Assembly: GCA_964480485.1 (NCBI GenBank) | Contig: CAYZOP010000001.1 | Location: forward strand, 431,541 to 495,540 | From: an uncultured Desulfobacterales bacterium | GTDB taxonomy: Bacteria > Desulfobacterota > Desulfobaccia > Desulfobaccales > 0-14-0-80-60-11 | Length of the DNA: 64,000 bases | Direction: 5' to 3' | Shown here: positions 8,837 to 30,122 of the stretch, piece by piece | Layout: every line of letters begins with the position of its first letter | Position numbering within the stretch: position 1 is the stretch's first letter | Program-made: the position numbers and the translations under genes | The notes under the pieces: model-generated | What the model was told of the DNA's origin: nothing | What the model saw: the letters and a program-made list of their open reading frames with translations, nothing else | Database searches by the model: none

Positions 8837-10210
8837 ATGATTGCACCGCCTTTGGGGCAACGCTTTGCGCTCCTCACCGACCTCTACCAACTCACCATGG
8901 CGGCCTGCTACTTCGAGCAGGGCATGAACGAGGAAGCCACCTTCAGCCTCTTCATCCGCAAGTACCCGGAAAACCGGGGCTATTTCGTAGCCGCCGGCCT
9001 GGAGGAGGCCCTCAGATACCTGGAAACCTTTTCCTTCGCCGAGGACGACCTGGCTTATCTTGAGTCCACCGGCCTGTTCAAGCCGGCCTTCCTGGAATAC
9101 CTGAAGGGGCTGCGCTTCTCCGGGGAGGTCTTCGCCCTGCCCGAAGGCACCGTGTTTTTCAAGGATGAACCCCTCCTGGAGGTGAGCGCCCCCATCATCC
9201 AGGCCCAGATGGTGGAGACCTTCGTCATCAACGCGGTGAGCCTGCAGACCCTCATCGCCTCCAAGGCCGCCCGCTCCATGCAGGTGGCCGGCGGCCGCCC
9301 GGTCATCGATTTTTCCCTGCGGCGCACCCAGGGGACGGACGCCGGCCTCAAGGTGGCCCGGGCCAGCTACCTTACGGGCTTTGCCGGCACCAGCAACGTC
9401 CTGGCCGGCAAACTCTACGGCATTCCCATCTTCGGCACCATGGCCCACTCCTACATCACCAGCTTTCCCCGGGAGATCGATGCCTTCCGGGTGTTTGCCC
9501 AAACTTTCCCCGGCATTGTCACGTTGCTCATCGACACCTACGACAACGCCGCCGGGGCCCGCAAGGCTGTCCAAGTGGCCCGGGAGCTGGCCGCCCGCGG
9601 CCAGCGCCTGCGGTTTGTCCGCCTGGACAGCGGCGATATCGCTGCCATCAGCAAGGAGGTGCGGAGCATTCTCGATGAGGAGGGCCTCCCCGAAGTCCGC
9701 ATCCTGGCCAGCGGCGGCTTCGACGAGTTCAAGATGGCCCGGGTCCTGGAAGCCGGCGGGGTGGTGGACGCCTTCGCAGTGGGCACCAAGATGGGGGTGT
9801 CCGCCGATGCGCCCTATTTCGACATCGCCTATAAACTGGTAAAATACGGCGGCCGACCGGTGATGAAGCTCTCCACCGGCAAAGTCACCCTGGTGGACAA
9901 GAAACAGGTCTGGCGCTTCAGCGACGAGACCGGCCGCATGCGCCGCGACGTCATCAGCCTGCGGGAGGAGGAGATCCCCGGGGCCGAGCCGCTCCTTGGC
10001 CGGGTGATGAGCGGGGGCCGATTAACCGGGCCCCTCCCCTCCCTGGCCGCCAGCCGCGCCTATTGCCAGCAGCAACTGGCGCGCCTGCCTGAACCTTATC
10101 GGGCCATCACCAGCCCACCCGTTTATCCGGTGGCCCTAAGCCCCGGCTTGGCTAGCCTGCAGGCAAAAGTGGAAGAGGACATCAAACACCGTGAATTGGG
10201 AGAATCATAA
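8837..10210 (+). CDS. pncB: Nicotinate phosphoribosyltransferase
   Basis: LLTDLYQLTMAACYF..., GTSNVLAGKLYGIPIFGTMAHSYI and RLDSGD are NAPRTase family motifs. AAAGGAGG precedes the ATG at 8837. Confidence 0.86.
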   Translation: MIAPPLGQRFALLTDLYQLTMAACYFEQGMNEEATFSLFIRKYPENRGYFVAAGLEEALRYLETFSFAEDDLAYLESTGLFKPAFLEYLKGLRFSGEVFALPEGTVFFKDEPLLEVSAPIIQAQMVETFVINAVSLQTLIASKAARSMQVAGGRPVIDFSLRRTQGTDAGLKVARASYLTGFAGTSNVLAGKLYGIPIFGTMAHSYITSFPREIDAFRVFAQTFPGIVTLLIDTYDNAAGARKAVQVARELAARGQRLRFVRLDSGDIAAISKEVRSILDEEGLPEVRILASGGFDEFKMARVLEAGGVVDAFAVGTKMGVSADAPYFDIAYKLVKYGGRPVMKLSTGKVTLVDKKQVWRFSDETGRMRRDVISLREEEIPGAEPLLGRVMSGGRLTGPLPSLAASRAYCQQQLARLPEPYRAITSPPVYPVALSPGLASLQAKVEEDIKHRELGES

Positions 10211-10822
10211 GTGGGATTGACCGAAGCCCTGTGCGACTACAATACCTTATTTATTCACAAGTGCAGTTATATCGGGGTTTTTGTGCTCATGACCCTGGAA
10301 AGCATGATTGCGCCGGTGCCCAGCGAACTGGTAATGCCTTTTGCCGGCTTTCTCATTTATACCGGCCAATTCGATCCCGTTTGGGTGATCGTGGCCAGCA
10401 GCCTGGGTTCCATCGCGGGCTCCCTCATCTCCTACGGTATGGGGAGGTTGGGGGAGCCGGTGGTGCTGCGTTACGGCCGCTACTTGCTGCTCAACCCCCA
10501 TCACCTGGAGTGGACCAAAGGGTTTTTTGCCCGCCACGGCGGCAAGACTATCTTCATCGCCCGCTTCATCCCGGTGGTCCGCCACCTCATCTCCATCCCG
10601 GCGGGCACGGCCCGTATGGCCCTGGCGCCTTTTCTGCTTTATACCCTGGTGGGCGCCACGCTGTGGAACGGCTTTCTCACCTGGGCTGGCGTCCGGCTGC
10701 GGGAAAACTGGCGTCTCATCCAGCAATACACCCATGTTCTGGACATCCTGGTGGTATTGGCCCTGCTGGCCGGGGCCGCCTGGTTCCTATGGAAAGTCAG
10801 GGCTTCCCGCGCCTCCGTCTGA
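10211..10822 (+). CDS. DedA/SNARE-associated family membrane protein
   Basis: GTG start abuts the pncB stop. The sequence has ES.I.PVPSE..MPFAGFL... and FIARFIPVVRHLISIPAG, typical of DedA. Confidence 0.85.
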   Translation: MGLTEALCDYNTLFIHKCSYIGVFVLMTLESMIAPVPSELVMPFAGFLIYTGQFDPVWVIVASSLGSIAGSLISYGMGRLGEPVVLRYGRYLLLNPHHLEWTKGFFARHGGKTIFIARFIPVVRHLISIPAGTARMALAPFLLYTLVGATLWNGFLTWAGVRLRENWRLIQQYTHVLDILVVLALLAGAAWFLWKVRASRASV

Positions 10823-18834: not shown

Positions 18835-19983
18835 CTAGCGCGCCGCCTTCACCTTGTCGTTGGTCTTGAAGGGCCCCCCCTTGAGCGCGGTGGCCACCGC
18901 GCCGGTGGTTCCCAAGAGTTCCGTCACCTTGAGTTCCCCTTGGACCTCATCCGCGGTAAATCCCAGAACCGCATGGGTCTGGGGGTTCACCACCTCTTTG
19001 CCGGGAGTCACCACCCGCAGGCGGTCGCCGGTCTTGACCCCGGCATTCTGCCCCAGGTTGAGATAGACCTTTCCCTCCTTGGTGAATTCCACCCGGCCGA
19101 ACCAGTCCACCTCCATGATCGCGGTGCCGATTCTGAGGCTATTGTCCCGGGCGAACTTGCCGGCGGATTCGGGCCGCAACCCGTCGCTGCCGGCGGGGGC
19201 CACCACCGAATCCGTCTTGTTCCCGAGGAACGCGTCATAGACCTCCGCGACATAGAAGCCGCTGCCCCCTTTTTCCGGGGGCACCACCCCGGTGAGGATG
19301 ACGGCCTGGACTCCCAGGTAGTCCCCCAGGGCCTGAAGGTTGCGGCGCAGCGAGAGCTTGCCGTGAATCCCGGATTTGGCCAGGGCCTCCTTGACCTTCT
19401 CCGCCGGAGCCACCTTGACGTCTTTCTGCCGACCCAGGGAGTCGGCCAGAGCGGTGGCGAGAGTCCGGTTCAGCCCTTGCTGGGAGGAAGGCGTTTCCGG
19501 ATCGGGCACTACGGCCACCGCCCGGCCGCTGTACGGGGCCTTGTCTCCCCGGGTGCGGGAGACGTACCCGCCCAGCCCCTGTTCCCGAAGGATGCGGTCC
19601 ACCTCGGCCCGCACCATCTCCTGGAGTTTGTCCGGAGGCACGGTCTTGCCCGCGGCCTTCTGCTGCTGATCGGCCACCCGCTTGGCCAGGGCATCCATGA
19701 GGTAAGACTGCATCCCCTTGAACTCCCTACCCTTTTCCACATAGATATACTCCGGCTGGTCCGGGTAGGTGAGCCAATAGGGGTTCTTGCTGCGCACATA
19801 GGGCTTGCCGTCCACCATCACCGTTTCCTGCTGGGCCTCCGGCGGCATCGCCTCTTCGGCGTCCTCCCCTTTTTCCCAGCCCACCCATTGCTTCATTTTG
19901 TCCATGGTGCCGCAGCCGGCCGCCCCCAACCCCACGGACAGGCTCAAGACGATCATTCCCCACAGCCAACCTCTGTGGCGCAT
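18835..19983 (-). CDS. Lipoprotein of unknown function
   Basis: It has a signal peptide plus lipobox (MRHRGWLWGMIVLSLSVGLGAAGC). The mature protein is charged and periplasmic-like, with a C-terminal beta-rich domain. Confidence 0.7.
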   Translation of the reverse strand: MRHRGWLWGMIVLSLSVGLGAAGCGTMDKMKQWVGWEKGEDAEEAMPPEAQQETVMVDGKPYVRSKNPYWLTYPDQPEYIYVEKGREFKGMQSYLMDALAKRVADQQQKAAGKTVPPDKLQEMVRAEVDRILREQGLGGYVSRTRGDKAPYSGRAVAVVPDPETPSSQQGLNRTLATALADSLGRQKDVKVAPAEKVKEALAKSGIHGKLSLRRNLQALGDYLGVQAVILTGVVPPEKGGSGFYVAEVYDAFLGNKTDSVVAPAGSDGLRPESAGKFARDNSLRIGTAIMEVDWFGRVEFTKEGKVYLNLGQNAGVKTGDRLRVVTPGKEVVNPQTHAVLGFTADEVQGELKVTELLGTTGAVATALKGGPFKTNDKVKAAR

Positions 19984-20115: not shown

Positions 20116-21465
20116 TTAGAAGAAGAACCAGGAACCGAAGCGGACGGAATGGGCCTCACCCATGTTGGTGGTCCCGATGGTCTGGTAGTAATCCGCCCGG
20201 GTGTAGGTGTACTGCAGACCGAACTTCAAAGCGGTGATGGGCCGGTAATACAGGTCGGCGGAGACTTCCCACCAGGTGTGCACCGGATCCACGAGGAAAG
20301 CATCCGGGTTGGAGCCGCCCAAGCGGTTGATGTCGTAATTGCAGCCCAAACCCGCCGCCACGTTCATGAACCACTGGTTGGTGAAGTAGTAGTTGGCCTG
20401 GACATAGCCGCCCCAGGTCTTGGTCAGGCGGCGGTCGAAGAGCAAATTGCCGGCAGCGTCGATCCCCTGGAACCGGAACTGACTGTTCACGCCCGTGGCG
20501 TTGCCGATGAAGTCCAGCCCCTCACCCACGTAAGCCTGCACCGTCAAGGCGGAAGTGCCCGCCAGGCTCTTGGTGGTGGTGGGGATCACCGGGATGAACA
20601 GGGTGCCCTGGACGACCCAGTTGTTCAGGTACTGCTGGTTGGGCTGCCTGATGATGCCGGTGGCAAAAGTGCTCCCGCCGTTCACCGCGACCACACTAAA
20701 ATCCCCGGCGCGGTAGCGGCTCCGCTGCCAGGCGCCCGCCACCTGGGCCACAAAACCCCGGGGCGCGCCATAAAACCCGGCCTTGCCCCAGAGGTCGCCT
20801 TCCCACTGGATCTTGGCCTGGATCTGCGGGGTTTCCGAGGTCTGGCCTTCCAACGGTCCGGTAGCGGCGGAGGGAGGGTAAGGCACATTGCCGGAATCGT
20901 TGGTGTCAGTGGGTTTGCCCACCAAGGCCGACAGAGTCATTTTGCCCTGGCCCAGCCCGAAGGTCTGGGTCACCCGCACTTGCGCCAGCCGCTGGGTGGC
21001 GACGCCGTGACCCTGGAAGGGACCGTCCTGAATGAGTTCCGGGTAGAACTCAGAGAAGTAGCCCCAGTACTGGCCGAAAAGCAGTTCGGTTTCCGGCCAG
21101 TTCAAGCGGAAGAAAGCATGACGCAACCGGGGCCTATAGGAGTTGGAGGCCGACTGGCGCTGGTCGCCCTGCTCGTCGAAGTCAACTTCCATGAAGCCGG
21201 TGACCTTGGCGCCCCACAGCGTGGGCCCCTTGATGGTGAAGTTGAAACGGGAAGACTGGGCCGTGGCGTTGAAGCGGCCATGAGTGGCGTTGGGATCGTT
21301 GTTCCGCCGCGGCGGGGTGTTGATGTTCTTGGGCAGCGCCGCGGAATCCCAGTAGGCTTCCAGCTTCAGATAGCCGCCCAGCGTGAACTCAGTCTGGGCC
21401 AGGCCCACCGCGGGCAGGGCCAGCAAGGCCGCCAGCACAAAGGCAAATAAGACGTTCTTTTTCAT
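20116..21465 (-). CDS. Outer-membrane beta-barrel porin
   Basis: The signal peptide is MKKNVLFAFVLAALLALPAVGLAQ. The sequence has alternating hydrophobic beta-strand pattern, is Gly/Tyr/Asn-rich, and ends in C-terminal ...GSWFFF (terminal Phe). Confidence 0.75.
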   Translation of the reverse strand: MKKNVLFAFVLAALLALPAVGLAQTEFTLGGYLKLEAYWDSAALPKNINTPPRRNNDPNATHGRFNATAQSSRFNFTIKGPTLWGAKVTGFMEVDFDEQGDQRQSASNSYRPRLRHAFFRLNWPETELLFGQYWGYFSEFYPELIQDGPFQGHGVATQRLAQVRVTQTFGLGQGKMTLSALVGKPTDTNDSGNVPYPPSAATGPLEGQTSETPQIQAKIQWEGDLWGKAGFYGAPRGFVAQVAGAWQRSRYRAGDFSVVAVNGGSTFATGIIRQPNQQYLNNWVVQGTLFIPVIPTTTKSLAGTSALTVQAYVGEGLDFIGNATGVNSQFRFQGIDAAGNLLFDRRLTKTWGGYVQANYYFTNQWFMNVAAGLGCNYDINRLGGSNPDAFLVDPVHTWWEVSADLYYRPITALKFGLQYTYTRADYYQTIGTTNMGEAHSVRFGSWFFF

Positions 21466-21608: not shown

Positions 21609-21646
21609 TAAAAAAATTTGAAAAAATCCGGCCCCTAGGCCCGGAA
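21609..21646 (-). terminator. Possible terminator after the ispH-fusion gene
   Basis: A short GC hairpin (UCCGGGCCUAGGGGCCGGA) is followed by UUUUUUCAAAUUUUUUU on the reverse strand. Confidence 0.4.
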
Positions 21647-21715
21647 CGTCTTAGGTTTCTCCCGCCCTTCCGGCGTTCTCCGAACCGGGTTCCCACCTCC
21701 TCCAGGCCGCGGGGC

Positions 21716-23452
21716 CTAGCAGGCGGCTCCCAGGGTATCCCAGATGAAGGCCAGGATGCCGGCCAGCACCATATTACCCTCCACCAGGGACTCCAACATC
21801 AGGCCGGACTCCATGAGGTCCAGGCGATACAGGGTCAGATATGCCAGGGCATAGAGGCCCCCCAGGCTCAGGACATAGCCCAGGGAGGGGACCAGCCCGC
21901 TTACGGCGGCAACAAGCAAGGCCGCGGCAAAGACCAGGCATCCCAGGGACAGGAGGTTCAAGGTGCGCCGGCGCCCCAGAGCGATGGCCAGGGTCTCTTT
22001 GCCCACCACCCGGTCCCCTTCGATGGCCAGAATCTCAAAGAGACCGGAGCGGATGAAGACCAGGCCGAAGACAAAGAGGAAGGCCACCACGGTGGCAGCG
22101 CTCAGGGGGCGCTCCGAGCAGACCACCGGGATCAGGGCCGCCAGCACGCCCCAGGCCAGGGAGGTGAAGACCGTCTTGGAGCCGGGGATCTCCCGCAGCG
22201 CTCCGATGCGGGTGAGGGCTGCCACGGACTCCGGCACGATCTTGAAATTATAGACCAGGCCCAGACCGCTCATGAGCAGCAGGAAGGCAAAGGCCACCGG
22301 TCCCAACACCAGCCCCAGCCCCAGGGCGGCCAGGGCCGAAGCGGCCCCGCTCACCAGCAGAAACTGCCGGTGCCGCCCGTAGAACATGGACTGCACCGGG
22401 TCATTGAGCTTGGAGGCCGCATCGGTGAAATGGTTGAGGATGTGCATGGCGTAAATATAGAAAAACGCCACGAAAAAATACTTCCACTGCGGCTGCACCT
22501 GTTGCAGCAGGGAGGAGGTGTAGCTCAGGCAGCCGGCGCCCAGGGCCACATAGAGGTTGGACTTGAGAAAGAAGCGCCAGACACGATAGAGATAGTTGGC
22601 CAGGGACCCCGGTTTGAAGGCCCAGGCGTGCTTCAGGGTGCTCACCACGTTGCTGATGAGCCAGTGGGGGGTGGAGGCGCCGGCGGTAACCCCCACCACC
22701 TGGAAGCGGCTCATCTCCGCCAAGTCCAGCTCCTGCTCGGTCTCCACGTGATAGGTGGGGATACCCGTGGCCCGGGAGATTTCCACCAGGCGCTGGGTGT
22801 TGCCGCTGTTTCTCCCCCCCACCACCACAATGGCCTCCACCTGCCGGGCCAGGGACTGGATCTCGCCCTGGCGGCTGGCGGTGGCGTCACAGATGGTGTT
22901 GAAGACCTTGATATCCGGGAACCGGGCTTTGAGCTGCGCCACCCGGGCGCTGAACTGGGCTTCGCTCTGGGTGGTCTGGGCCACCACAATAACCTTGTCC
23001 AGCTCGGGCAGGGCCGCCACGTCCTCAGCGGTGGCCACCACATAGCCCCGTCCCCGGGTGTGGCCCAACAGGCCCCGCACTTCCGGGTGGTCGGCGTCGC
23101 CCACAATGACCGTGGCATAATCCTCCTGGGCCCAGCGCCGGATAATGGCCTGCACCTTGGCCACCCGGGGGCAGGTGGCGTCGATGATGCGCACCCCGGC
23201 GCCTTCCAGCTCCCGGCGCTCCTGGGGCGGAATGCCGTGGGCCCGAATCACCACCAACCCCCGGGGCCTCTGGCCCCGCTCCAGGACGCGGATGCCCCGC
23301 TCCTTCAGCAGTTCCAGGACCTGGGGATTGTGAATCAGCGGACCGTGGGTAAAAATCTCCCCCTGGTTCTGGTTGATGGCCTTGAGGACCAGTTCCATGG
23401 CCCGTTTGACACCCATGCAGAAGCCGGAGGTGCGTGCGATGATGACTTTCAT
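21716..23452 (-). CDS. ispH: Fusion protein: 4-hydroxy-3-methylbut-2-enyl diphosphate reductase (IspH) plus a C-terminal UbiA-family prenyltransferase membrane domain
   Basis: The N-terminal ~285 aa form a complete IspH with the three cluster cysteines (SGFCMGV, DATCPRV, NTICDAT) and ...TAGASTP. The ORF continues without a stop into ~290 aa with 8-9 TM helices. That part carries UbiA-like motifs: NHFTDAASKLND (an atypical first Asp-rich motif) and IEGDRVVGKETLAIALG. Confidence 0.85.
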   Translation of the reverse strand: MKVIIARTSGFCMGVKRAMELVLKAINQNQGEIFTHGPLIHNPQVLELLKERGIRVLERGQRPRGLVVIRAHGIPPQERRELEGAGVRIIDATCPRVAKVQAIIRRWAQEDYATVIVGDADHPEVRGLLGHTRGRGYVVATAEDVAALPELDKVIVVAQTTQSEAQFSARVAQLKARFPDIKVFNTICDATASRQGEIQSLARQVEAIVVVGGRNSGNTQRLVEISRATGIPTYHVETEQELDLAEMSRFQVVGVTAGASTPHWLISNVVSTLKHAWAFKPGSLANYLYRVWRFFLKSNLYVALGAGCLSYTSSLLQQVQPQWKYFFVAFFYIYAMHILNHFTDAASKLNDPVQSMFYGRHRQFLLVSGAASALAALGLGLVLGPVAFAFLLLMSGLGLVYNFKIVPESVAALTRIGALREIPGSKTVFTSLAWGVLAALIPVVCSERPLSAATVVAFLFVFGLVFIRSGLFEILAIEGDRVVGKETLAIALGRRRTLNLLSLGCLVFAAALLVAAVSGLVPSLGYVLSLGGLYALAYLTLYRLDLMESGLMLESLVEGNMVLAGILAFIWDTLGAAC

Positions 23453-23460
23453 GGCCAAGA

Positions 23461-23487
23461 TTTTCGGTTTCGGTTCAGGGTTTCAAG
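23461..23487 (-). repeat. Related heptad array (CTTGAAA-CCCTGAA-CCGAAA-CCGAAAA) directly upstream of the ispH-fusion gene
   Basis: Reverse-strand reading. The array ends 8 nt before the ATG at 23452, and no SD is present. Confidence 0.55.
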
Positions 23488-23602
23488 CTTTACAATAGGC
23501 TTGTCCAGCCGGTGGCCAGGGTCTGGGGGCCGGAGGCCCCCACCGGATTGCATGGAAGTGGCTCACATCGGCATCACCGGCTCTGGCTGAGGCAAATTTA
23601 CA

Positions 23603-23637
23603 CCGAAATCCGAAATCCGGAAACCGAAATCCGCACC
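23603..23637 (+). repeat. Tandem heptad array CCGAAAT-CCGAAAT-CCGGAAA-CCGAAAT-CCGCACC directly upstream of the CruF-like gene
   Basis: Read directly from the sequence. The array ends 18 nt before the ATG at 23655, and no SD is present. Confidence 0.6.
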
Positions 23638-23654
23638 GGCAAAGCGGCGTCTGA

Positions 23655-24677
23655 ATGGAGACCCTCACCCTGCTTTGGGGCACCGTCTGGCTGCGCCCCT
23701 ATGTCTTCATCTTTCTTTTCTGCTACCTGGGACTGGGCACCCTGGACCTGGGTTTGGGCCGGACCCTGGTGTTTCTGGTCCTGGGCTACCTGGTGGCCTG
23801 GGCGGCGGAGTTTTCCGCCATCCACACCGGGTTCCCCTTCGGCCGCTACATCTATATCCCCGCCACCCTGGATCAGGAACTCTGGGTGCTGGGGGTGCCC
23901 TTCATGGACTCCCTGTCCTATGTCTTTTTGGCCTACGCCAGCTTCGCCACCGCCCGCCTGGCCCTGGGCGGCCTGCGCCCCGGGGCGGCCCTGGACGGCT
24001 CCTGGGGACTCACCATCCTGGCCGCCACCCTGATGATGACCCTGGACGTGATCATCGATCCCGTGGCCCTCAGGGGCTACCGGTGGTTCCTGGGCCAGAT
24101 CTACGGCTACCCCGAACCGGGAATCTATTTCGGCATCCCCTTGAGCAACTTTGCCGGCTGGTGGCTGGTCGCCGCGGTAATGATTCGCCTGCTGCAAGCC
24201 CTCCTCGCCTCCCTGCCCCCACGGCCGCCCTGGAGCCTGGGCCAAGGCCGCCGGCCTCTTCAGGCCCTCCTGGGCCCCGCCCTGTATCTGGGCATCCTGG
24301 CCTTCAACCTCGCCGTCACCTTCTGGATTGATGAGCCCCTCTTGGGCTGGGTGGGCCTCTTCATCTACATCCCCTTCCTCACCTGGCTGGGAGTGAAGGT
24401 GGCGGCAGAGCTGAATTTGGGGGAGGGGCGGGGGACCGGCGGGCCCCCCTCCCCCTCGGCCCCTCCCCCAACCCCTTACAGGGGGTGGGGGGGAGAGATT
24501 GACGGGAGAGCGGAGGATCGGCAATCCCCCGGCCCCCTCCTCAACTGCGCTTCGCCTCCAGCACCACCTTCAGTCCCCGGGCCAGGCGGTGAGCGGCCAC
24601 AAGGCTGGCGCGCCAGAAGCGGAGGAGCAGCGGGAGACGGCGCCAGTCCTGCCGCAGCCAGCCAACGGCGTCCCTAA
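23655..24677 (+). CDS. Carotenoid-biosynthesis-protein family (DUF422 / CruF-like) membrane protein with a low-complexity 3' extension
   Basis: The first ~255 aa are polytopic with TGFPFGRYIY and DPVALRG..W..., as in the CruF/DUF422 family. The last ~85 aa (GEGRGTGGPPSPSAPPPTPYRGWGG...) are encoded by a G/C-rich repeat element and overlap the convergent gene by 137 nt. Confidence 0.72.
   Translation: METLTLLWGTVWLRPYVFIFLFCYLGLGTLDLGLGRTLVFLVLGYLVAWAAEFSAIHTGFPFGRYIYIPATLDQELWVLGVPFMDSLSYVFLAYASFATARLALGGLRPGAALDGSWGLTILAATLMMTLDVIIDPVALRGYRWFLGQIYGYPEPGIYFGIPLSNFAGWWLVAAVMIRLLQALLASLPPRPPWSLGQGRRPLQALLGPALYLGILAFNLAVTFWIDEPLLGWVGLFIYIPFLTWLGVKVAAELNLGEGRGTGGPPSPSAPPPTPYRGWGGEIDGRAEDRQSPGPLLNCASPPAPPSVPGPGGERPQGWRARSGGAAGDGASPAAASQRRP
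24418..24496. repeat. G/C-rich palindromic element (M1-M2) forming the 3' tail of the CruF-like ORF
   Basis: GGGGGAGGGGC..GCCCCTCCCCC followed by CCCCCAACCCC-TTACA-GGGGGTGGGGG. Confidence 0.7.
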
Positions 24678-25311
24678 GGGTGGGAGCAACGGAGCGACTG
24701 ACGGCTTGGGCGATGAAGGCCGGGATTTCTTCCTGGGCGGGGTCGGTGATGGCCCTGAGGGCACAAAACGGCAAGCCCCGGCGGTTGGCCAGGGCCGCCA
24801 GGGCGGCGCTTTCCACTTCCAGGACCGGGTGGCTCAGGCGCGAAAGCGTCGCGCGGTGATCAGCCTTGCGGATGACTCCGGGGCAGGTGACGAAGGTTCC
24901 CAGGCAAGCGGGGAGGCCGGCCTCCCTCAGGCGGGCCAGCAGGTCCTCCCAGGGTCGCAAGAGCGGCGGGCCCGGACTTTCCTCCAATTCCCCGGTTTGC
25001 GGCTGGTATTGCCAAAAAGCTGCGGCCACCACCACCTGCCCAACCTGGAGATCAGGCCCCAGGGCGCCGGCGAACCCGGCGGAAATGAGGACAGACGGCT
25101 GAAAACGGGCCAACAGCGCCGCGGCCGCGGCCTTGGCTGCCTCCTGGCCCATGCCGCTCAGGGCCAACACCCCCCTTCCCGCCCCCGTCGGAAAGTCCCA
25201 AGCCGGAACTCCCAGCCCTGCCAGACGCCGGGCCCGGGCCAGGCGCAAAAAAGGCCGCACCTCTTGAGGAAGGGCGGCCAGGATGAGCACGGCAACCGGT
25301 TCTGCCGGCAT
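24541..25311 (-). CDS. PNP/UDP-family nucleosidase/phosphorylase (HpnG-like or MqnB/MTA-nucleosidase-like)
   Basis: LISAGFAGAL and VLEVESAALAA (the E-M/V-E-S motif) are present. The C-terminal extension resembles that of hopanoid-associated phosphorylases. The subfamily cannot be decided by eye. Confidence 0.72.
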   Translation of the reverse strand: MPAEPVAVLILAALPQEVRPFLRLARARRLAGLGVPAWDFPTGAGRGVLALSGMGQEAAKAAAAALLARFQPSVLISAGFAGALGPDLQVGQVVVAAAFWQYQPQTGELEESPGPPLLRPWEDLLARLREAGLPACLGTFVTCPGVIRKADHRATLSRLSHPVLEVESAALAALANRRGLPFCALRAITDPAQEEIPAFIAQAVSRSVAPTLRDAVGWLRQDWRRLPLLLRFWRASLVAAHRLARGLKVVLEAKRS

Positions 25312-25322
25312 GTCCAGGGGAT

Positions 25323-26057
25323 TCAGCGGGATTTGGGCGCCGGCAGGGAAGAACCCCCGGAGGCGTCGGGCGGCGGCAATTCCGGCTCCACGGGGATGCC
25401 CTCGCCCACCTGGCGGGGCCGGCCGAACCGGCGTCCCTGCACCAGCAGGTTGCCGCTTTTGTGGATAACGGTGCGGTCGTCCAGGATGATGAGGCCGTGC
25501 CGCTCGGAAATCTCCGAATAGTATTGGTACTTCATCTGTCTCTGGTTGAGGCGGTATTTGAAAAACAGGAAAAAGATCATGTAGATGGTGACGATGAGTC
25601 CCAGGCCGGCCAAGATCCAGCTCAACAATATGAAGGTATTATGGCCCAGGGAAGCCAGCCAGGACATGATATAGTCCAGGTGGTAGAGGGCCAATACGGT
25701 GACCAGCAGCAGAAACAGGATGGCCAACAGCGGCAGCCGCCGCACCTGCCGCACCACCGCGTCCAGCTGGTTTTCCGCCTCCCCCTCTGGTTGCTCGGCG
25801 GGTTCTTCGCCCAGGAAATAATTGAAGCCGGTGATGATCACTCCCATCAGGAAGGTGAAGACGATGGGAAAGGCGAAGGCCACAAAGAGGTATTCCTTCC
25901 AGGGAAAGGGGGTGTAGACGCGGTGGTACTTGTCATCCGAGGACCACAGGGCCACCACGATGAAAATCACGATTTCCAGGATGCCGATGAGCTTGAGGTA
26001 GTCGAAGAAGAGCTTTTTACGATCGGCCTTGGTAAAGTAGGAGGCGAGTCTGGACAT
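25323..26057 (-). CDS. Integral membrane protein of unknown function (about 4 TM)
   Basis: Four clear hydrophobic helices and an acidic loop (EEPAEQPEGEAEN). The codon pattern is coding-like, and the gene lies 11 nt upstream of the next gene. Confidence 0.62.
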   Translation of the reverse strand: MSRLASYFTKADRKKLFFDYLKLIGILEIVIFIVVALWSSDDKYHRVYTPFPWKEYLFVAFAFPIVFTFLMGVIITGFNYFLGEEPAEQPEGEAENQLDAVVRQVRRLPLLAILFLLLVTVLALYHLDYIMSWLASLGHNTFILLSWILAGLGLIVTIYMIFFLFFKYRLNQRQMKYQYYSEISERHGLIILDDRTVIHKSGNLLVQGRRFGRPRQVGEGIPVEPELPPPDASGGSSLPAPKSR

Positions 26058-26216: not shown

Positions 26217-27206
26217 TCAGGAGTTCAGGCCGCAGCGGGCCAACAGTTCAGCGAGCCGCTGGCGGTAGGTATGGTCCCGGTGGGTGCGCCGGTGTCCCTG
26301 TCGGGCAATTTCCTCCCGCTCCCGGGGATGCGCCAGATAGTAGGCCAGGCGTTCCTTAAGTTCCGGAATGGCGCGATAAAGGACGATCTCTGTCCCCGGC
26401 TCGTAATGCTCCGGGATCTCCTCTTTAAAGTCGCACACCTGAAAGGCGCCACAGCCGCAGGCCTCAAACACCCGGGGGTTGAGGCCAAAGTCCCATTTGC
26501 CGAACCAGGTGTGGATATTCAACACCACGTGGGCCCGATGGAAGATGCCGGTCATCTCCTCCGGGGTAAAAAACCCGTCCTTGACGAGGCACCTTTGCAA
26601 AGGGGAGTGCAGGTCCAGGTGCTTTTTCCAGGGCCCCCAGATGCCCACCCGGAAGTCCCGGGCCAGCAGGCAAAGGATTTCCTCCCGGCCGGGGGACCAG
26701 TCCCCGGCGAAAGCCACTTCATAGTCGGCTCCGGGGGTTCCCAGGCGCCGGTGCACTTCCGGATAACACCCCACCGGCAGATAGAAAACCCGCTTTACCC
26801 CGGCCTCCCGGTACCGGGGGAGGCATCCCCGGGCGTTGGTGAAGTAATAGTCGTAATATGGAGCCTGCGCCAGGGACCGCCCCAGTTGGAACGGATCGTT
26901 GAGCCACCAGCAGATGGTGGTCACCCGCCGCTGTCTCACCGCGGCCACCAATTCGCCGGGCAGATCCATGCCGAACACGGCCAACAGCGCGTCGGGGCGA
27001 ACTTCCTCCAGGAGTCGAAGGAGACTCTGTTGCAGGGACCGCTGGAAGGCCTGGCGGGAGAGCCTCTTCAACAGCCGCCCCTTAAGCCCCCGGTTGCCGA
27101 AGTCAAAGCGGTGCACTTCATGTCCCATGGACTTCAGGGTCCAAAAGACATAGTCATTCATGGGCACGGTTTTCAAGTGCCCCGGCACCGCCAGGATGAT
27201 CTTCAC
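26217..27206 (-). CDS. CgeB-family / DUF3880-type glycosyltransferase-like protein
   Basis: MKIILAVPG...ICWWLNDP...YDYYFTN...VAFAGDW...LNIHTWFGKWDFGLNPRVFEACGCGAF resembles CgeB-type GT-B C-terminal domains. Confidence 0.65.
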   Translation of the reverse strand: MKIILAVPGHLKTVPMNDYVFWTLKSMGHEVHRFDFGNRGLKGRLLKRLSRQAFQRSLQQSLLRLLEEVRPDALLAVFGMDLPGELVAAVRQRRVTTICWWLNDPFQLGRSLAQAPYYDYYFTNARGCLPRYREAGVKRVFYLPVGCYPEVHRRLGTPGADYEVAFAGDWSPGREEILCLLARDFRVGIWGPWKKHLDLHSPLQRCLVKDGFFTPEEMTGIFHRAHVVLNIHTWFGKWDFGLNPRVFEACGCGAFQVCDFKEEIPEHYEPGTEIVLYRAIPELKERLAYYLAHPREREEIARQGHRRTHRDHTYRQRLAELLARCGLNS

Positions 27207-27551: not shown

Positions 27552-29783
27552 TTACTTGGTCTCTTCCGGCGACTTGGCCTGGGGTTCCCGGGCCTCCAGC
27601 TCCTTATACCACTCGGAGTGATGCTTCTTGGCCCACTTGCGGCTCACCTTGCCGTCCACCAGCGCCCGCCAGGTGCCGGGGTTGGCGATGGTGCCCAGAT
27701 AGGCGTGGGCGACGACCGCGGCCACAAAGACCACGGCAAAGAAGCCGTGGACGGTGGACAAAAGGCAGTTGAAGGTCAGGGGCAGGCTGTTCTTGAAGAT
27801 GAGCAGGATGCCGGTGACCCCCATGATGAGGGTGAGGACCGCGGTGAACCAGAGGAAGATCTTCTGGCCGGCGTTCAGCCTGCCGGCCGGCACCTCCACT
27901 TCCCGGCCGCCCAGGTAGCCGCCCCGCTTGGCCAGCCACTCCCGGTCATAGGGGGCGAATTTGGCGTCCTTGGCCCACAGCGCCACCGCGGCGATGCCGG
28001 CGGCCACGAAGATGAGGCCCGTGACCCAGTGCACCACCACTGCGCTTTGCGGAGAACTGAAGAACATCTTTAGGAGCGTGACGTTGTTGTAGAAGAAGAT
28101 GTAACCCGTAAGGGTGAGCACCAGGAAGGAGACCATGCGGATGAGGTGCGTCCAACGTTCGGTTACGTTGAAGCGCTCGATCTCCGCCGGCTCGTAGGTG
28201 AAGTCCGCGCCTTTGGGGCCCTGGCCGGTGTAGTGCAGGGTGAGCCCGAAGACCAGGAGCAACAAGAGGATGCTCACGTAGGGCGTGAGATACGTCTGGT
28301 GGAATTGGTTGACGTAAAAGGCCCAGGGCTGGCAGCCGAAGAGTTTGCCGGAGCTGATGGTGACGGGTTTGCCGTCGGGGCCGAACATGTCGGTGACGAT
28401 CTGCCCTTTGAACATGTGGGCTTCTGAAGAGTGGCAGTCGCCGCAGCCATTGGCCCCCAGGGCCAGGCTGGCCGGGGCCACGTTGTGGTTGATGTTGAAG
28501 CCTTCGGCGTGGCCGGCCCAGGTGGTGTCCGGGCCGCTCACCAGCTCGCCCTTGTCATCCAGGTAGTACATCATGCCGCCCTTGTGGAAGAAGGGCTTCA
28601 CCTGCTGGAAGCGCTTGTTCCCCTGGAGGGTCTCCTTGAAGGCCGTCAGGGCGATCTTGATCTGCTCCGGGGTATGGAGCTCAGGTTTCTGCGGGTTCTT
28701 GGGCTTCAGTTGGGCCTTGGCCTTCTCGTAGCCCTTTTTCAGCTCCCGGGCGAACAGGGGATAGTTGATGCCGTCCTTGTCCTGGTTGCTGAAAAAGATG
28801 CTCTTAAAGCGGTTCACCGGCCAAAGCTTGCCGTGTTCATCACGCTGGTAAGAAGGATGCCAGGTGAATTCCTCCCCGATCTTCTTGGCGCCTGGGCTGG
28901 GAAGCATGGTGGGGTAGTTCACCATCATGCCGGTGGTGACGTCAAAGCCCTCAAACCCGGCGCGGTGCAGGGCCGGGATGTGGCAGACCTCGCAGGCCAG
29001 CTTTTCCAGGTGGTTGGGCCGAATGGACAGGTGCGCCGGACGGGGCGCGCCCATGTAGCCCTCTTCATGGCACTGCTTGCAGGTCTTCATCCCCACATAG
29101 TCCAGGTCGTCCCGCACCGTGGAGACGTTTTCGTCCCCCTTGGCGAACTGGTGCTGGAGTTTGGTGATCTTCCGCTTCGGGTCTTCAATGGACTGGTGGC
29201 AGTCGGTGCAGGTCATGCCCTGGAGGTTGTGGACGTCGTGGTTGACCCGGTCATCCCAGGAAAAGCCCCGCTTTTTGACGTCGGAGATGCCATGGCAGAA
29301 GACGCAGTTCTCCGCGGGCGGCGGGTACGACAGATCCAGGACGATCTTGCCGTCGTCATTGAACAGCCGTTTGTTATAAACCACTTTGGGCTGCTGGCCG
29401 TCCCGGACGAAGCCACTGACCTGGCCGATGCCCGAGGCCGCGGTGCCGGCCCACTTGTAGTTCAGCATCTTGAGCTGGCGGGTGCGTTCATTAAAGTTGT
29501 AGCCCGGCAGGTGGCAGACGAAACAGTCGGCCTCCACCACCCCGGTCTTGTCCCATTGGCTCTGAAAGTAGTCGCCGTCCAGACTCTGGGCCAGCTGCGG
29601 CTCGGCCTTGAGTCGGGTGTCGTAGCGCTTGCCGTCCCGGTCCATTTCCAGGCCGCCCCCGCCCGGGTGGCAGGAGCCGCAGGTGGGCAGATTCATGCCC
29701 TGGGGGTCCCGGGGGCCCACGCTGATCCATTCGAAGGTGGTCAGGTCAATCTGATCCGGGTGGTCGTTCTTCTTTTTCGCCAA
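27552..29783 (-). CDS. Multihaem c-type cytochrome (7 CxxCH) fused to a FdnI/HydC-type dihaem cytochrome b membrane domain (CbcL-like). It is leaderless as called and probably continuous with the upstream ORF through UGA
   Basis: The CxxCH motifs are CGSCH, CFVCH, CVFCH, CTDCH, CKQCH, CEVCH and CGDCH. The C-terminal 5 TM carry His ligands (ERWTHL, VVVHW, STVHG...VAHAY). The track start is a TTG with no SD, and there is no signal peptide. Confidence 0.85.
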   Translation of the reverse strand: MAKKKNDHPDQIDLTTFEWISVGPRDPQGMNLPTCGSCHPGGGGLEMDRDGKRYDTRLKAEPQLAQSLDGDYFQSQWDKTGVVEADCFVCHLPGYNFNERTRQLKMLNYKWAGTAASGIGQVSGFVRDGQQPKVVYNKRLFNDDGKIVLDLSYPPPAENCVFCHGISDVKKRGFSWDDRVNHDVHNLQGMTCTDCHQSIEDPKRKITKLQHQFAKGDENVSTVRDDLDYVGMKTCKQCHEEGYMGAPRPAHLSIRPNHLEKLACEVCHIPALHRAGFEGFDVTTGMMVNYPTMLPSPGAKKIGEEFTWHPSYQRDEHGKLWPVNRFKSIFFSNQDKDGINYPLFARELKKGYEKAKAQLKPKNPQKPELHTPEQIKIALTAFKETLQGNKRFQQVKPFFHKGGMMYYLDDKGELVSGPDTTWAGHAEGFNINHNVAPASLALGANGCGDCHSSEAHMFKGQIVTDMFGPDGKPVTISSGKLFGCQPWAFYVNQFHQTYLTPYVSILLLLLVFGLTLHYTGQGPKGADFTYEPAEIERFNVTERWTHLIRMVSFLVLTLTGYIFFYNNVTLLKMFFSSPQSAVVVHWVTGLIFVAAGIAAVALWAKDAKFAPYDREWLAKRGGYLGGREVEVPAGRLNAGQKIFLWFTAVLTLIMGVTGILLIFKNSLPLTFNCLLSTVHGFFAVVFVAAVVAHAYLGTIANPGTWRALVDGKVSRKWAKKHHSEWYKELEAREPQAKSPEETK

Positions 29784-29801: not shown

Positions 29802-30122
29802 TCAGAACTTCCCCAGCATGCCGTCGGACAGGACCCAGGGCTTCTTCTGGTTGAAGTCGTCCTTGATCCGGTCCCAGCCCTGTTGGAAGTGAAAGCCCTT
29901 GGTGATTTCGTCGTAGTTGTGGCAAGCCCCGCAGGTCTGCCGGGGGCTGTAGGGCTGATCGGCGTTTTCGCCGGTTAGGGGGTTGATGGTCTTGCCATCC
30001 TCGGTTTTCAAGTGAAAGGGCACGCAGGCCCGCACCTTGGCTGCCGTACCCGGCGGCAGCAGGAGGAGCCAGCCGAGGATCACGGCCAGACACCCTCCGA
30101 CAGTGAAGAGAACTTTCTTCAT
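29802..30122 (-). CDS. Signal peptide plus mono-haem (CGACH) cytochrome c segment. It ends at an in-frame TGA 18 nt before the next ORF and is the likely N-terminus of the CbcL-like protein
   Basis: MKKVLFTVGGCLAVILGWLLLLPPGTAAK is a signal peptide, and GAGGAGGG lies upstream. The stop TGA (29802-29804) is in the same frame as the TTG at 29783. Confidence 0.75.
   Translation of the reverse strand: MKKVLFTVGGCLAVILGWLLLLPPGTAAKVRACVPFHLKTEDGKTINPLTGENADQPYSPRQTCGACHNYDEITKGFHFQQGWDRIKDDFNQKKPWVLSDGMLGKF

Follow-up and report, generated by a model that had tools for sequence, protein, structure and literature searches.

Described IspH fusions and related systems

The last step of the MEP pathway is catalysed by IspH, which converts HMBPP to IPP and DMAPP. 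Proteins joining IspH to a UbiA domain were described by Rao, O'Dowd, Li, Wang and Oldfield as "IspH-UbiA" 'Rosetta stone' fusions, with the function left open (Rao et al., 2015, Chem Sci 6:6813; PMC4746011). These proteins of about 580 aa have an N-terminal IspH and a C-terminal CDD PT_UbiA_5 domain; 47 sequences were counted, 'all in sulfate-reducing bacteria', and Desulfobacca acetoxidans, which belongs to the same order as the bacterium considered here, was among the carriers (PMC4746011). The full-length IspH-UbiA could not be expressed; a C5 donor was suggested, as was membrane localisation as one possible role, and a CruF-family neighbour was not mentioned (PMC4746011). We found no later functional work on IspH-UbiA in the literature; the 2015 publication was absent from the first-pass annotation of our DNA.

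The IspH-RPS1 fusions of Clostridia and Fusobacteria likewise have IspH as the N-terminal part of a two-part protein in anaerobes (PMC4746011). Their partner is a soluble RNA-binding domain with no obvious pathway link, whereas the partner in the protein studied here is a membrane enzyme-like domain.

A UbiA-superfamily gene beside a PF04240 gene, the arrangement that we also see here, is known from haloarchaea, where lyeJ adjoins cruF. LyeJ is a UbiA-family lycopene elongase/hydratase with DMAPP as the donor, CrtEb belongs to actinobacterial C50 carotenoid pathways, and CruF-type proteins are isoprenoid/carotenoid 1,2-hydratases. We know of no IspH fusion in the LyeJ and CrtEb systems.

The fusion is genuine and widespread

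We analyzed a 64-kb stretch of DNA (the window). The fusion gene occupies positions 21716..23452 on the minus strand, with 578 codons plus a stop and an ATG at 23452. An in-frame TTG at 23458 is an alternative start; the ORF would then span 21716..23458 (minus strand) and encode 580 aa, two residues more. The first-pass annotation had described a 578-codon ORF with a complete IspH, all three Fe-S cysteines and a UbiA domain, and we confirm this description.

A protein 100% identical to the window's fusion (P0001) is present on contigs of up to 879 kb, and the two-domain architecture of about 579 aa is common to more than 120 protein clusters (at least 74% identity). Both domains lie in a single ORF at all 80 loci that we sampled from other lineages. 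Searching a library that comprises 1.84 billion representatives gave 955 relatives, of which the best 150 are mostly about 575-585 aa long and match at residues ~280-575. These observations confirm that the fusion of IspH with a UbiA-superfamily domain is genuine, neither an assembly artefact nor a product of chance, and that the fused form is the normal state of the family; the alternative of two ordinary genes, separated by a stop or a frameshift, falls away.

The fusion is present in at least 515 species genomes, including those of anammox Planctomycetota, Nitrospirota and Nitrospinota. The IspH-UbiA family is thus much broader than "sulfate reducers". Compared with the proteins of Rao et al., the window protein has the same architecture and the same type of host, and nothing differs in the protein itself. 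For example, the orthologue of the D. acetoxidans type (L083) shares clade, architecture and gene context with the window.

A consensus scan placed a terminator-like hairpin with a T-run at 21631..21647 (minus strand), about 70 nt past the stop of the fusion gene, followed by a promoter-like site for the next, porin-like gene at 21608-21580. The same kind of scan found no sigma-70-like site in the 202-bp divergent region (23453..23654) that separates the fusion from the CruF-like gene. The fusion gene appears to be monocistronic; it lies among housekeeping genes.

A complete IspH half

The IspH (LytB) domain covers residues 1-275 (22628..23452, minus strand). The PF02401 (LYTB) match reached 315.2 bits (cutoff 24.5) over residues 3-274 and spanned profile positions 1-267 of 267, while TIGR00216 (ispH) scored 284.8 bits against a cutoff of 187.85. 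Residues 1-280 contain just three cysteines, C12, C94 and C188, located in GFCMGV, DATCP and NTICDAT, respectively, and the IspH motifs GPLIHN, RAHG, HPEV, AQTTQ, SGNT and GASTP are all there. The three cysteines and the catalytic motifs are kept across 86 family representatives with mutual identity of at most 50%.

The AlphaFold2 model has the IspH trefoil fold, and Foldseek aligned it with 3dnf, 3ke8 and 4n7b at E-values of 1e-21 to 1e-17 and target TM-scores of 0.81-0.85; the highest identity among the structure matches was to the A. aeolicus IspH (42%, TM 0.81). Judged from its sequence, then, the IspH half is complete with intact motifs. It would be the cell's housekeeping copy.

A divergent UbiA-like membrane half

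A short, confidently modelled linker leads to the UbiA-superfamily domain (residues 284-578; 21719..22603, minus strand), which has one pre-TM helix and nine TM helices. The PF01040 score of the whole protein is marginal (35.2 bits against a cutoff of 34.2, residues 328-543); taken by itself, the domain scores 38.3 bits. Each of the 19 diverse members of the family that we tried matched the profile, at best with 1.3e-18.

The AlphaFold2 model of the domain (pLDDT 90.9, pTM 0.89) shows the nine-TM UbiA fold, with Foldseek probability 1.00 to 6m31, 4od4, 7bpu, 4tq3/4, 8j8j and 8djk. The closest structures are DGGGPS (6m31/7bpu), ApUbiA (4od4; TM 0.67-0.73), AfUbiA and UBIAD1, at 12-15% identity. 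The nine-helix fold is common to the window domain and to DGGGPS (6M31/7BPU), ApUbiA (4OD4) and AfUbiA (4TQ3), from which the window domain differs in being bacterial and fused to IspH. With E<=1 as the limit, a profile of the fusion family's membrane domain still matched no chain in the PDB.

Among NCBIfam models, PRK12872, PRK13591 and PRK12882-4 were nearest, and the top families for the 19 members were DGGGPS-type, MenA, ChlG and HPT. The equivalog cutoff for DGGGPS was far from reached by the window domain (PRK12872.1-1, 14.8 bits against 278), and other fusion members matched DGGGPS-type models with E=4e-11 at best, also far under the cutoffs. All scores to curated families are far below their cutoffs. 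We infer that the domain is a divergent prenyltransferase of the DGGGPS/MenA/ChlG kind and no orthologue of MenA, UbiA or CyoE. Given a cytoplasmic N-terminus, the secondary structure of the model places the motif loops 2-3, 4-5 and 6-7 in the cytoplasm, which supports the prediction that the conserved polar loops face the IspH side.

Partner genes in one bacterial order

The first-pass annotation had noted a DUF422/CruF-family gene about 200 bp away on the other strand, and we found it as described: a PF04240 membrane protein gene at 23655..24677 (plus strand), starting 202 bp from the fusion ATG, with TGFPFGRYIY at residues 58-67. PF04240 scored 85.7 bits (cutoff 25) over residues 30-191; all three Pfam profiles proposed as a check on the locus (PF02401, PF01040 and PF04240) are therefore above cutoff. 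None of the three CruF equivalog models reached its cutoff (TIGR03460, 61.6 bits against 154.7; NF045693, 41.1 against 400; NF041333, 37.2 against 300). The conserved core comprises approximately residues 1-262 (23655-24440). The 340-aa ORF listed in the first-pass annotation is longer than the homologs (260-265 aa); its residues 263-340, a low-complexity Pro/Gly/Arg-rich tail of about 80 residues, are missing from them, and 137 nt of the tail's coding sequence also belong to the convergent nucleosidase gene.

That gene (24541..25311, minus strand), convergent with the CruF-like gene, encodes an MTA/SAH-nucleosidase-superfamily protein that had been called HpnG/MqnB-like. It matched PF01048 with 99 bits and, as the best PDB match, MTAN 1jys with about 45 bits. 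The equivalog cutoffs for HpnG (TIGR03468, 90.5 bits against 187.1), futalosine hydrolase MqnB (TIGR03664, 53.5 against 124.7) and MTAN (PRK05584, 71 against 169) were all missed, and the profile scores establish superfamily membership alone. Directly upstream lies a gene for a 4-TM protein (25323..26057, minus strand), for which the HMM scan gave no family match.

We observed the CruF-like gene divergent beside the fusion in seven of seven loci of the Desulfobaccales type (L001, L083, L085, L087, L088, L089 and L090), and wherever we looked at the surroundings of a CruF-like homolog, a fusion gene lay beside it. On the other hand, no PF04240 neighbour was present at any of the 80 sampled fusion loci from lineages outside this clade. 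The pairing is therefore real and confined to one bacterial order, and the general function of the fusion cannot depend on CruF. The nucleosidase-like gene is near the pair in all seven clade loci, and the 4-TM gene is translationally coupled to it in most of them, with start and stop adjacent or overlapping in L083, L085, L087 and L089. The idea of a shared locus extending to the glycosyltransferase gene (26217-27206) stands for these two genes; the glycosyltransferase gene itself belongs to no conserved unit. Outside the clade the neighbours of the fusion are lineage-dependent and mostly housekeeping genes, so the context does not point to an acceptor.

The conserved adjacency of the CruF-like, nucleosidase-like and 4-TM genes could also be gene order inherited within one order, with no functional coupling: the nucleosidase would then be an ordinary enzyme of the MTA, 5'-deoxyadenosine or (amino)futalosine type, and the role of the PF04240 protein in the membrane would be a separate one. 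The clade genomes are fairly close (at least 65% identity), so part of the conservation could have such an origin, and the flanking SerRS, shikimate and MTHFR genes are syntenic in several loci too. Desulfobacterota make menaquinone mostly via the futalosine route (PMC13386864), which needs a nucleosidase of this kind, and the fusion and the CruF-like gene, being on opposite strands, share no operon. However, L088 retains the trio despite entirely different outer flanks, and in L090 the divergent pair is intact despite genes inserted between the CruF-like and nucleosidase-like genes. With the CruF-like homologs tied to the fusion wherever context was examined, we regard uncoupled inheritance as rather unlikely, though it is the strongest competitor to the reading that we prefer.

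The first-pass annotation had proposed that the membrane domain, like LyeJ or CrtEb, adds a C5 unit from IspH-made DMAPP to a membrane isoprenoid, which the CruF-like protein would then hydrate. The resemblance to the haloarchaeal lyeJ-cruF arrangement, the strictness of the pairing within the clade and the plausibility of a C5 donor for a domain fused to IspH, likewise noted by Rao et al. (PMC4746011), speak for such a pathway. Its scope, however, fits poorly with a fusion so widely distributed and so rarely accompanied by PF04240, and the CruF-like protein is far under the CruF equivalog cutoffs. No lycopene-elongase family appeared, by family name, among the 25 NCBIfam families listed at E<=1 for the 19 members; within these matches, the domain gave no HMM sign of being closest to elongases. 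We also found no carotenoid (crtB, crtI, crtD), hopanoid or quinone genes in the Pfam scan, which covered 36 of the 52 predicted genes of the window (up to ~47.5 kb, including all within ~20 kb of the fusion); the earlier remark that no other carotenoid genes are visible agrees with this, and the locus differs here from the LyeJ and CrtEb systems. To our knowledge, the host lineage, one of anaerobic sulfate reducers, is not known for carotenoids. Since the function of the fusion was left open in 2015 and the CruF-like pairing is limited to one order, "C5 elongation plus hydration" stays a guess, and in our estimate an improbable one.

Conserved residues of the membrane half

The first motif, NHFTDAASKLNDP, lies at 22397..22435 (minus strand; residues 340-352, N340-H-F-T-D344...N350-D351-P352) and had rightly been called atypical. 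The window reads N340-H-F-T-D344-A-A-S-K-L-N-D351-P, against a family-wide consensus of N-(R/H)-x-x-(D/E)...N-(D/E)-P-x-R, and the canonical NDxxDxxxD is absent (N340...D344...D351 in the window): the Asp after the Asn and the third Asp, two of three canonical aspartates, are missing family-wide. Position 354 is Q in the window's clade; elsewhere in the family it is R, in most members, or K.

The second motif, EILAIEGDRVVGKET, lies at 21992..22036 (minus strand; residues 473-487, E473-I-L-A476-I-E478-G-D480-R-V-V-G-K-E-T). It resembles the D-x-x-D-x-x-G-D-x-x-x-G-x-x-T type of DGGGPS and ChlG. Most of the family has D473-x-x-D476-x-Q-G-D480, the window's clade has E473-x-x-A476-x-E478-G-D480, and a Nitrospirota group has D-S-E-D. 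With E473, A476, E478 and D480, the clade thus keeps three acidic residues, one of them shifted; the acid lost at 476 returns at 478 in this clade and, independently, in the Nitrospirota group. The shift looks like upkeep of a metal or diphosphate site. The replacements specific to this clade are invariant in 121 of 121 clusters. Given the non-canonical first motif together with Q354, E473 and A476, catalysis may be altered.

A membrane anchor or scaffold is a further candidate role: as a pseudo-enzyme, the domain would transfer no prenyl group and would mainly place IspH near partners bound to the membrane, for example electron donors or polyprenyl or quinone enzymes. Membrane localisation was raised by Rao et al. 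(PMC4746011), and the family-wide departure from the first Asp-rich motif, the loss in this clade of the Arg after motif 1 and of one motif-2 Asp, and a PF01040 score barely over the cutoff are in line with it. What argues against it is the conservation of polar or charged residues in cytoplasmic loops and at helix ends. Family-wide, N340, D344, N350, D/E351, Y401, S425, K426, W434, R468, D480, G484, E486 and T487 are conserved at 60-99%; among members outside the window's clade, the range is about 54-99% for residues that include N340, D344, D351, Y401, S425, K426, R468, D480, E486 and T487, while overall identity is just 26-40%. The least conserved of them among these members is D344 (54%, or ~70% when D or E is counted). 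Such conservation at low overall identity fits an enzyme, not a mere membrane anchor, and the fixed clade replacements and the twice-regained acid point the same way; we think a purely structural role improbable.

Proposed role of the fusion

The fusion itself has been known since 2015; what is added here is its distribution, the partner genes in Desulfobaccales and the Q354/E473/A476/E478 signature. We favour, somewhat above even odds, a membrane-tethered housekeeping IspH that feeds a divergent prenyltransferase, to which one lineage has added an accessory set. IspH, fused to the nine-helix UbiA-like domain, would be held at the membrane, so that C5 diphosphates, or longer prenyl diphosphates made from them, would arise beside a site that uses prenyl diphosphates; channelling of substrate between the halves may follow. 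The acceptor of the prenyl group transferred by the UbiA-like site would lie in the membrane.

In the Desulfobaccales-type clade only, the fusion would have gained a fixed partner set: the divergent PF04240 protein and the nearby nucleosidase-like and coupled 4-TM genes. The CruF-like protein may be functionally coupled to the fusion, and the isoprenoid lipid on which the fusion works would probably also be the target of all three partners.

The fused gene and its IspH half

The IspH-UbiA gene is an uninterrupted ORF on the minus strand (21716..23458) that encodes 580 aa from a TTG codon or 578 aa from the ATG at 23452. The first-pass annotation, made from the sequence alone, had described it as a single-ORF fusion of IspH, with all three Fe-S cysteines, to a UbiA-type domain, and this description was borne out by Pfam, by the NCBIfam IspH equivalog and by the cysteine contexts. 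The HMM searches that it had proposed recovered all three families: LytB/IspH at full length (residues 3-274, 315 bits), UbiA marginally (residues 328-543, 35.2 bits, cutoff 34.2), and PF04240, in the divergent CruF-like gene, with 85.7 bits. The equivalog TIGR00216 scored 284.8 bits against a cutoff of 187.85. We found C12, C94 and C188 to be the sole cysteines in residues 1-280, each in the expected sequence context, and all the substrate-binding motifs (GPLIHN, RAHG, HPEV, AQTTQ, SGNT, GASTP) to be present in the IspH half. The two UbiA motifs quoted earlier were located at residues 340-352 and 473-487.

In the full-length AlphaFold2 model (pLDDT 87.2, pTM 0.76), the IspH part matched solved IspH structures with target TM-scores of 0.81-0.85. 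More than 120 protein clusters from Desulfobaccales/Syntrophobacterales-type MAGs, with 74-93% identity, had the same ~579-aa two-domain architecture, all carrying an annotation of IspH only. Compared with the members from other lineages, the IspH half of the window's protein was 41-56% identical and the membrane half 26-40% identical. That two genes had been joined by an assembly artefact or a frameshift was ruled out by the single ORF seen in these close clusters and in 80/80 loci of other lineages. Behind the gene lies a terminator-like hairpin, and a separate promoter-like site was seen for the next gene. IspH is an essential enzyme and a drug target.

Distribution of the family

Rao et al. 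(2015) described 47 IspH-UbiA fusions, "all in sulfate-reducing bacteria", classed the membrane domain as PT_UbiA_5, of unknown function, and proposed a local supply of isoprenoid diphosphates from IspH to the prenyltransferase; the paper makes no mention of CruF (PMC4746011). We found no later functional study of IspH-UbiA in the literature. The fusion is already known, and the window's gene is another, MAG-derived member of the described family.

How widespread the fusion is, a survey suggested in the first-pass annotation, could be answered. A scan of GTDB with one genome per species, using patterns from a 6-sequence alignment that exclude the window's own clade, found the fusion in 515 genomes; the clade itself was covered by exact-protein look-ups. 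Complete genomes with the fusion include those of D. acetoxidans DSM 11109 and Ca. Brocadia pituitae (AP021856) and the MAG CP070689. One ORF contained both the IspH part and the UbiA-like part in each of the best 80 loci. These loci came from anammox Planctomycetota, including Brocadia, Kuenenia, Scalindua and others (L014, L017-L023, L025, L027-L034, L040-L055, L059, L062, L078, L080), from Nitrospirota/Thermodesulfovibrionia, several Thermodesulfobacteriota orders, Nitrospinota and Zixibacteria, and from MAGs labelled Deferribacteres and Edwardsbacteria. The distribution is thus much broader than published, with anammox bacteria and Nitrospirota included, a result that is new but incremental.

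We also queried 1.84 billion representative proteins with the membrane half alone (residues 277-578); at E<=1e-3, it had 955 relatives. Of the 150 best-scoring ones, the majority were ~575-585 aa long with the match at ~280-575, and are therefore fused. The shorter matches were for the most part either labelled partial or fragments from contigs of 1-3 kb, so that there was no convincing unfused form, and a standalone membrane domain was rejected.

Outside the window's clade, the conserved neighbours of the fusion were lineage-specific and mostly housekeeping. For example, Thermodesulfovibrionia had an aminotransferase IV and a GalT-like gene, and Brocadiaceae had DUF502 immediately downstream, GT2, a polyprenyl synthase, a HemN-like radical SAM enzyme, EF-P and FolD. 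The gene for the DUF502 membrane protein began ~14 nt behind IspH-UbiA and was co-oriented with it in 30 Brocadiaceae-type loci; no more than ~3 kb upstream, a polyprenyl diphosphate synthase was seen in 19 of the 30 and a GT2 glycosyltransferase in 23. This neighbourhood is lineage-specific and isoprenoid-flavoured, unlike that of Desulfobaccales.

The CruF-like neighbour

The CruF-like gene lies on the plus strand (23655..24677), divergent from the fusion, with its start 202 bp from the fusion ATG; the peptide TGFPFGRYIY corresponds to residues 58-67 of its product. The protein is a PF04240 member that scored far below all three CruF equivalog cutoffs, and no relative with a solved structure was found by sequence. 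Its homologs have 260-265 aa, and the window ORF is longer by a tail of ~80 residues. The tail (24441-24677, plus strand) is of low complexity, rich in Pro, Gly and Arg, and overlaps by 137 nt the 3' end of the convergent nucleosidase-like gene (24541-25311). Since an identical 340-aa protein was recorded on three contigs, a single sequencing error does not account for the tail, which looks like the result of a lost ancestral stop codon.

The CruF-like gene was divergently adjacent to the fusion in all seven independent clade loci, retrieved from either the fusion or the CruF-like protein (L001, the D. acetoxidans-type L083 and L084 counted together, L085, L087-L090). In L088, the outer flanks were entirely different and the nucleosidase, CruF-like and fusion genes were still together. 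In L090, two genes were inserted between the CruF-like and nucleosidase genes and the divergent pair was intact; the insert consists of a gene for a lipid-related Zn-dependent phospholipase C (9550-10500) and a 147-aa ORF. In the 80 loci of other lineages, an HMM built from 120 clade CruF-like proteins and run with filters off gave nothing above ~10 bits. Five ORFs near the fusion were polytopic and of suitable size; they were assigned to DUF1646, ABC-3, TauE and an NnrU-like family, with one in no family, and a hidden divergent PF04240 gene beside the fusion in other phyla was rejected. Conservation of the adjacency, raised in the first-pass annotation, therefore stood for the Desulfobaccales-type clade and failed for the 80 other-lineage loci.

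It is reasonable to take the divergent PF04240 gene as a candidate partner of the fusion in this clade. The same adjacency could be inherited synteny without any coupling of the two genes, which we consider unlikely though by no means far-fetched.

Downstream genes and wider context

The genes beyond the CruF-like gene were as first described: a PNP/MTAN-superfamily protein (24541..25311), a 4-TM protein without family (25323..26057) and a Glyco_trans_1_2/DUF3880 protein (26217-27206). The nucleosidase-like protein is a member of the MTA/SAH nucleosidase superfamily that scored below the HpnG, MqnB and MTAN cutoffs. Since menaquinone in Desulfobacterota is made mostly via futalosine (PMC13386864), the gene could encode an ordinary pathway or SAM-recycling enzyme. 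The 4-TM gene was translationally coupled to it in most of the seven clade loci. The glycosyltransferase had been suggested to belong to a lipid-tailoring locus; we rejected this, as the gene was specific to the window's own genome and missing from L083, L085, L087, L088, L089 and L090.

We predicted 52 genes in the 64-kb window and scanned 36 against Pfam, i.e., all within ~20 kb of the fusion. The neighbours were housekeeping genes (FolD, aspartokinase, LeuA/CimA, TsaD, NAPRTase, shikimate genes, SerRS, GltX, Fmt, RF1/PrmC, LeuC, CDP-alcohol phosphatidyltransferase). None of the 36 was a carotenoid, hopanoid or quinone gene, in agreement with the earlier remark that no other carotenoid genes were visible.

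Several other features of the locus were recorded. A 743-aa protein (27552-29783, minus strand) combines a multihaem c-type cytochrome region (MtrC/MtrF-like, cytochrome c7 motifs) with a cytochrome b domain of the formate-dehydrogenase-gamma type (TIGR01583, 135.7 bits, above cutoff). Its gene is preceded by a 106-aa gene (29802-30122, minus strand), and D. acetoxidans-type contigs (L083) had the pair conserved close to the locus as well, beside MTHFR and DUF5981 genes. Directly downstream of the fusion, on the minus strand, are genes for a porin-like 449-aa protein with a weak Porin_4 match (20116-21465) and, beside it, a 382-aa putative lipoprotein without family (18835-19983); both were syntenic in several clade relatives (L001, L085, L089, L090). 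In L085 (11748-12158) and L090 (1053-1430, 2912-3283), the porin-like and lipoprotein-like genes downstream of the fusion were interspersed with small 23S_rRNA_IVP/bAvd-type four-helix-bundle genes, absent from the window. Domains of this type often occur as accessory proteins of diversity-generating retroelements.

The membrane domain

A search of the PDB with the family sequence profile returned no chain at E<=1, and comparison of folds was therefore needed. The domain-only AlphaFold2 model (pLDDT 90.9, pTM 0.89) matched archaeal DGGGPS (6M31, 7BPU), ApUbiA (TM 0.67-0.73), AfUbiA, the membrane PRTase 8J8J and UBIAD1, all with Foldseek probability 1.00 and 12-15% identity. The membrane half has no close characterised or crystallised relative.

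A scan of 19 diverse members against NCBIfam gave matches to PRK12872.1-3 and PRK13591 ("prenyltransferase") in every one, to DGGGPS models in 17, to MenA in 12, to ChlG in 11 and to homogentisate phytyltransferase in 9; every score was far below the family cutoff, and no lycopene-elongase family was listed among the matches. This pattern sets the domain apart as a UbiA subfamily of its own, on the DGGGPS/MenA/ChlG side, a placement that is new but incremental. A MenA or MqnP identity was not supported: the MenA models matched weakly and in at most 12 of the 19 members, and Rao et al. noted a separate MenA/UbiA gene in fusion-bearing genomes (PMC4746011).

The first-pass annotation had proposed, by likeness to LyeJ and CruF, a C5 elongation followed by hydration. 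The one observation in favour of this model is the PF04240 adjacency, which is real. The missing lycopene-elongase match and the low CruF equivalog scores speak against it, and we regard it as improbable. No tblastn match was obtained for reference cruF and lyeJ genes in plasmid records.

Because the domain follows IspH, its N-terminus must be cytoplasmic; by the predicted helices, loops 2-3, 4-5 and 6-7 then face the cytoplasm, and the conserved polar residues were all in or near these loops. The family consensus reads M-H-x-L-N340-(R/H)-x-x-(D/E)344…N350-(D/E)351-P-x-R354 in the first motif, Y401, P423-x-S425-K426 and W434 in the middle, and R468…D473-x-x-D476-x-Q-G-D480-R-x-V-G-x-E-T in the second motif. 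As read from these residues, the first motif is non-canonical family-wide and the second is of the DGGGPS/ChlG type. Conservation of polar residues against an overall identity of 26-40% argues for an enzyme, and a role as a passive membrane anchor only is accordingly hard to credit.

Clade signature in the membrane domain

In the 121 cluster representatives of the window's clade, we found Q354 in 121, E473 in 120, A476 in 121, E478 in 121 and A489 in 117, compared to R/K, D, D, Q and P at these positions in most other members. Six additional clade loci had the same signature. The acid shifted from 476 to 478 in this clade (E-A-E-D at 473/476/478/480, compared to D-D-Q-D in most members) was also shifted in 17 of the 80 other loci, the Nitrospirota/Thermodesulfovibrionia group with D-S-E-D and R354 kept (L026, L036, L042, L045, L052, L056, L060, L061, L063, L064, L066, L067, L069, L074, L077, L079, L082). 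The shift thus arose independently in a lineage that has no CruF-like neighbour, and the remodelled motif as a marker of the CruF-neighbour lineage was partly rejected; only Q354, and mostly E473, are specific to the window's clade. The two patterns suggest interchangeable geometries of the same putative metal or diphosphate site. The signature, together with the conserved PF04240 and nucleosidase-like partners (in most loci also the 4-TM partner), is new but incremental.

Interpretation

The best-supported reading is that one protein combines an IspH, predicted active, with a divergent, probably catalytic UbiA-superfamily prenyltransferase, the IspH being tethered, as we would picture it, at the cytoplasmic face of the membrane domain. 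What the fusion does in general cannot depend on CruF, because most lineages lack a CruF neighbour.

In the Desulfobaccales-type clade, the fusion and its PF04240 partner, perhaps with the nucleosidase-like/4-TM pair, might form a pathway to an undescribed modified isoprenoid lipid or quinone, with LyeJ/CruF-type chemistry outside carotenoids. In such a pathway, the host would be a non-carotenogenic anaerobe, the C5 donor would be generated in situ by the fused IspH, and the product could be, e.g., a C5-prenylated and/or terminally hydrated polyprenyl chain. We give this scheme a small chance.

In hundreds of anaerobic species, among them the environmentally important anammox bacteria and Nitrospirota, IspH-UbiA is normally present as the fusion, and Desulfobacca is one cultured lineage in which the PF04240 partner is fixed. 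The product of the domain, if identified, would point to a new membrane isoprenoid or to a new membrane organisation of the last MEP step.
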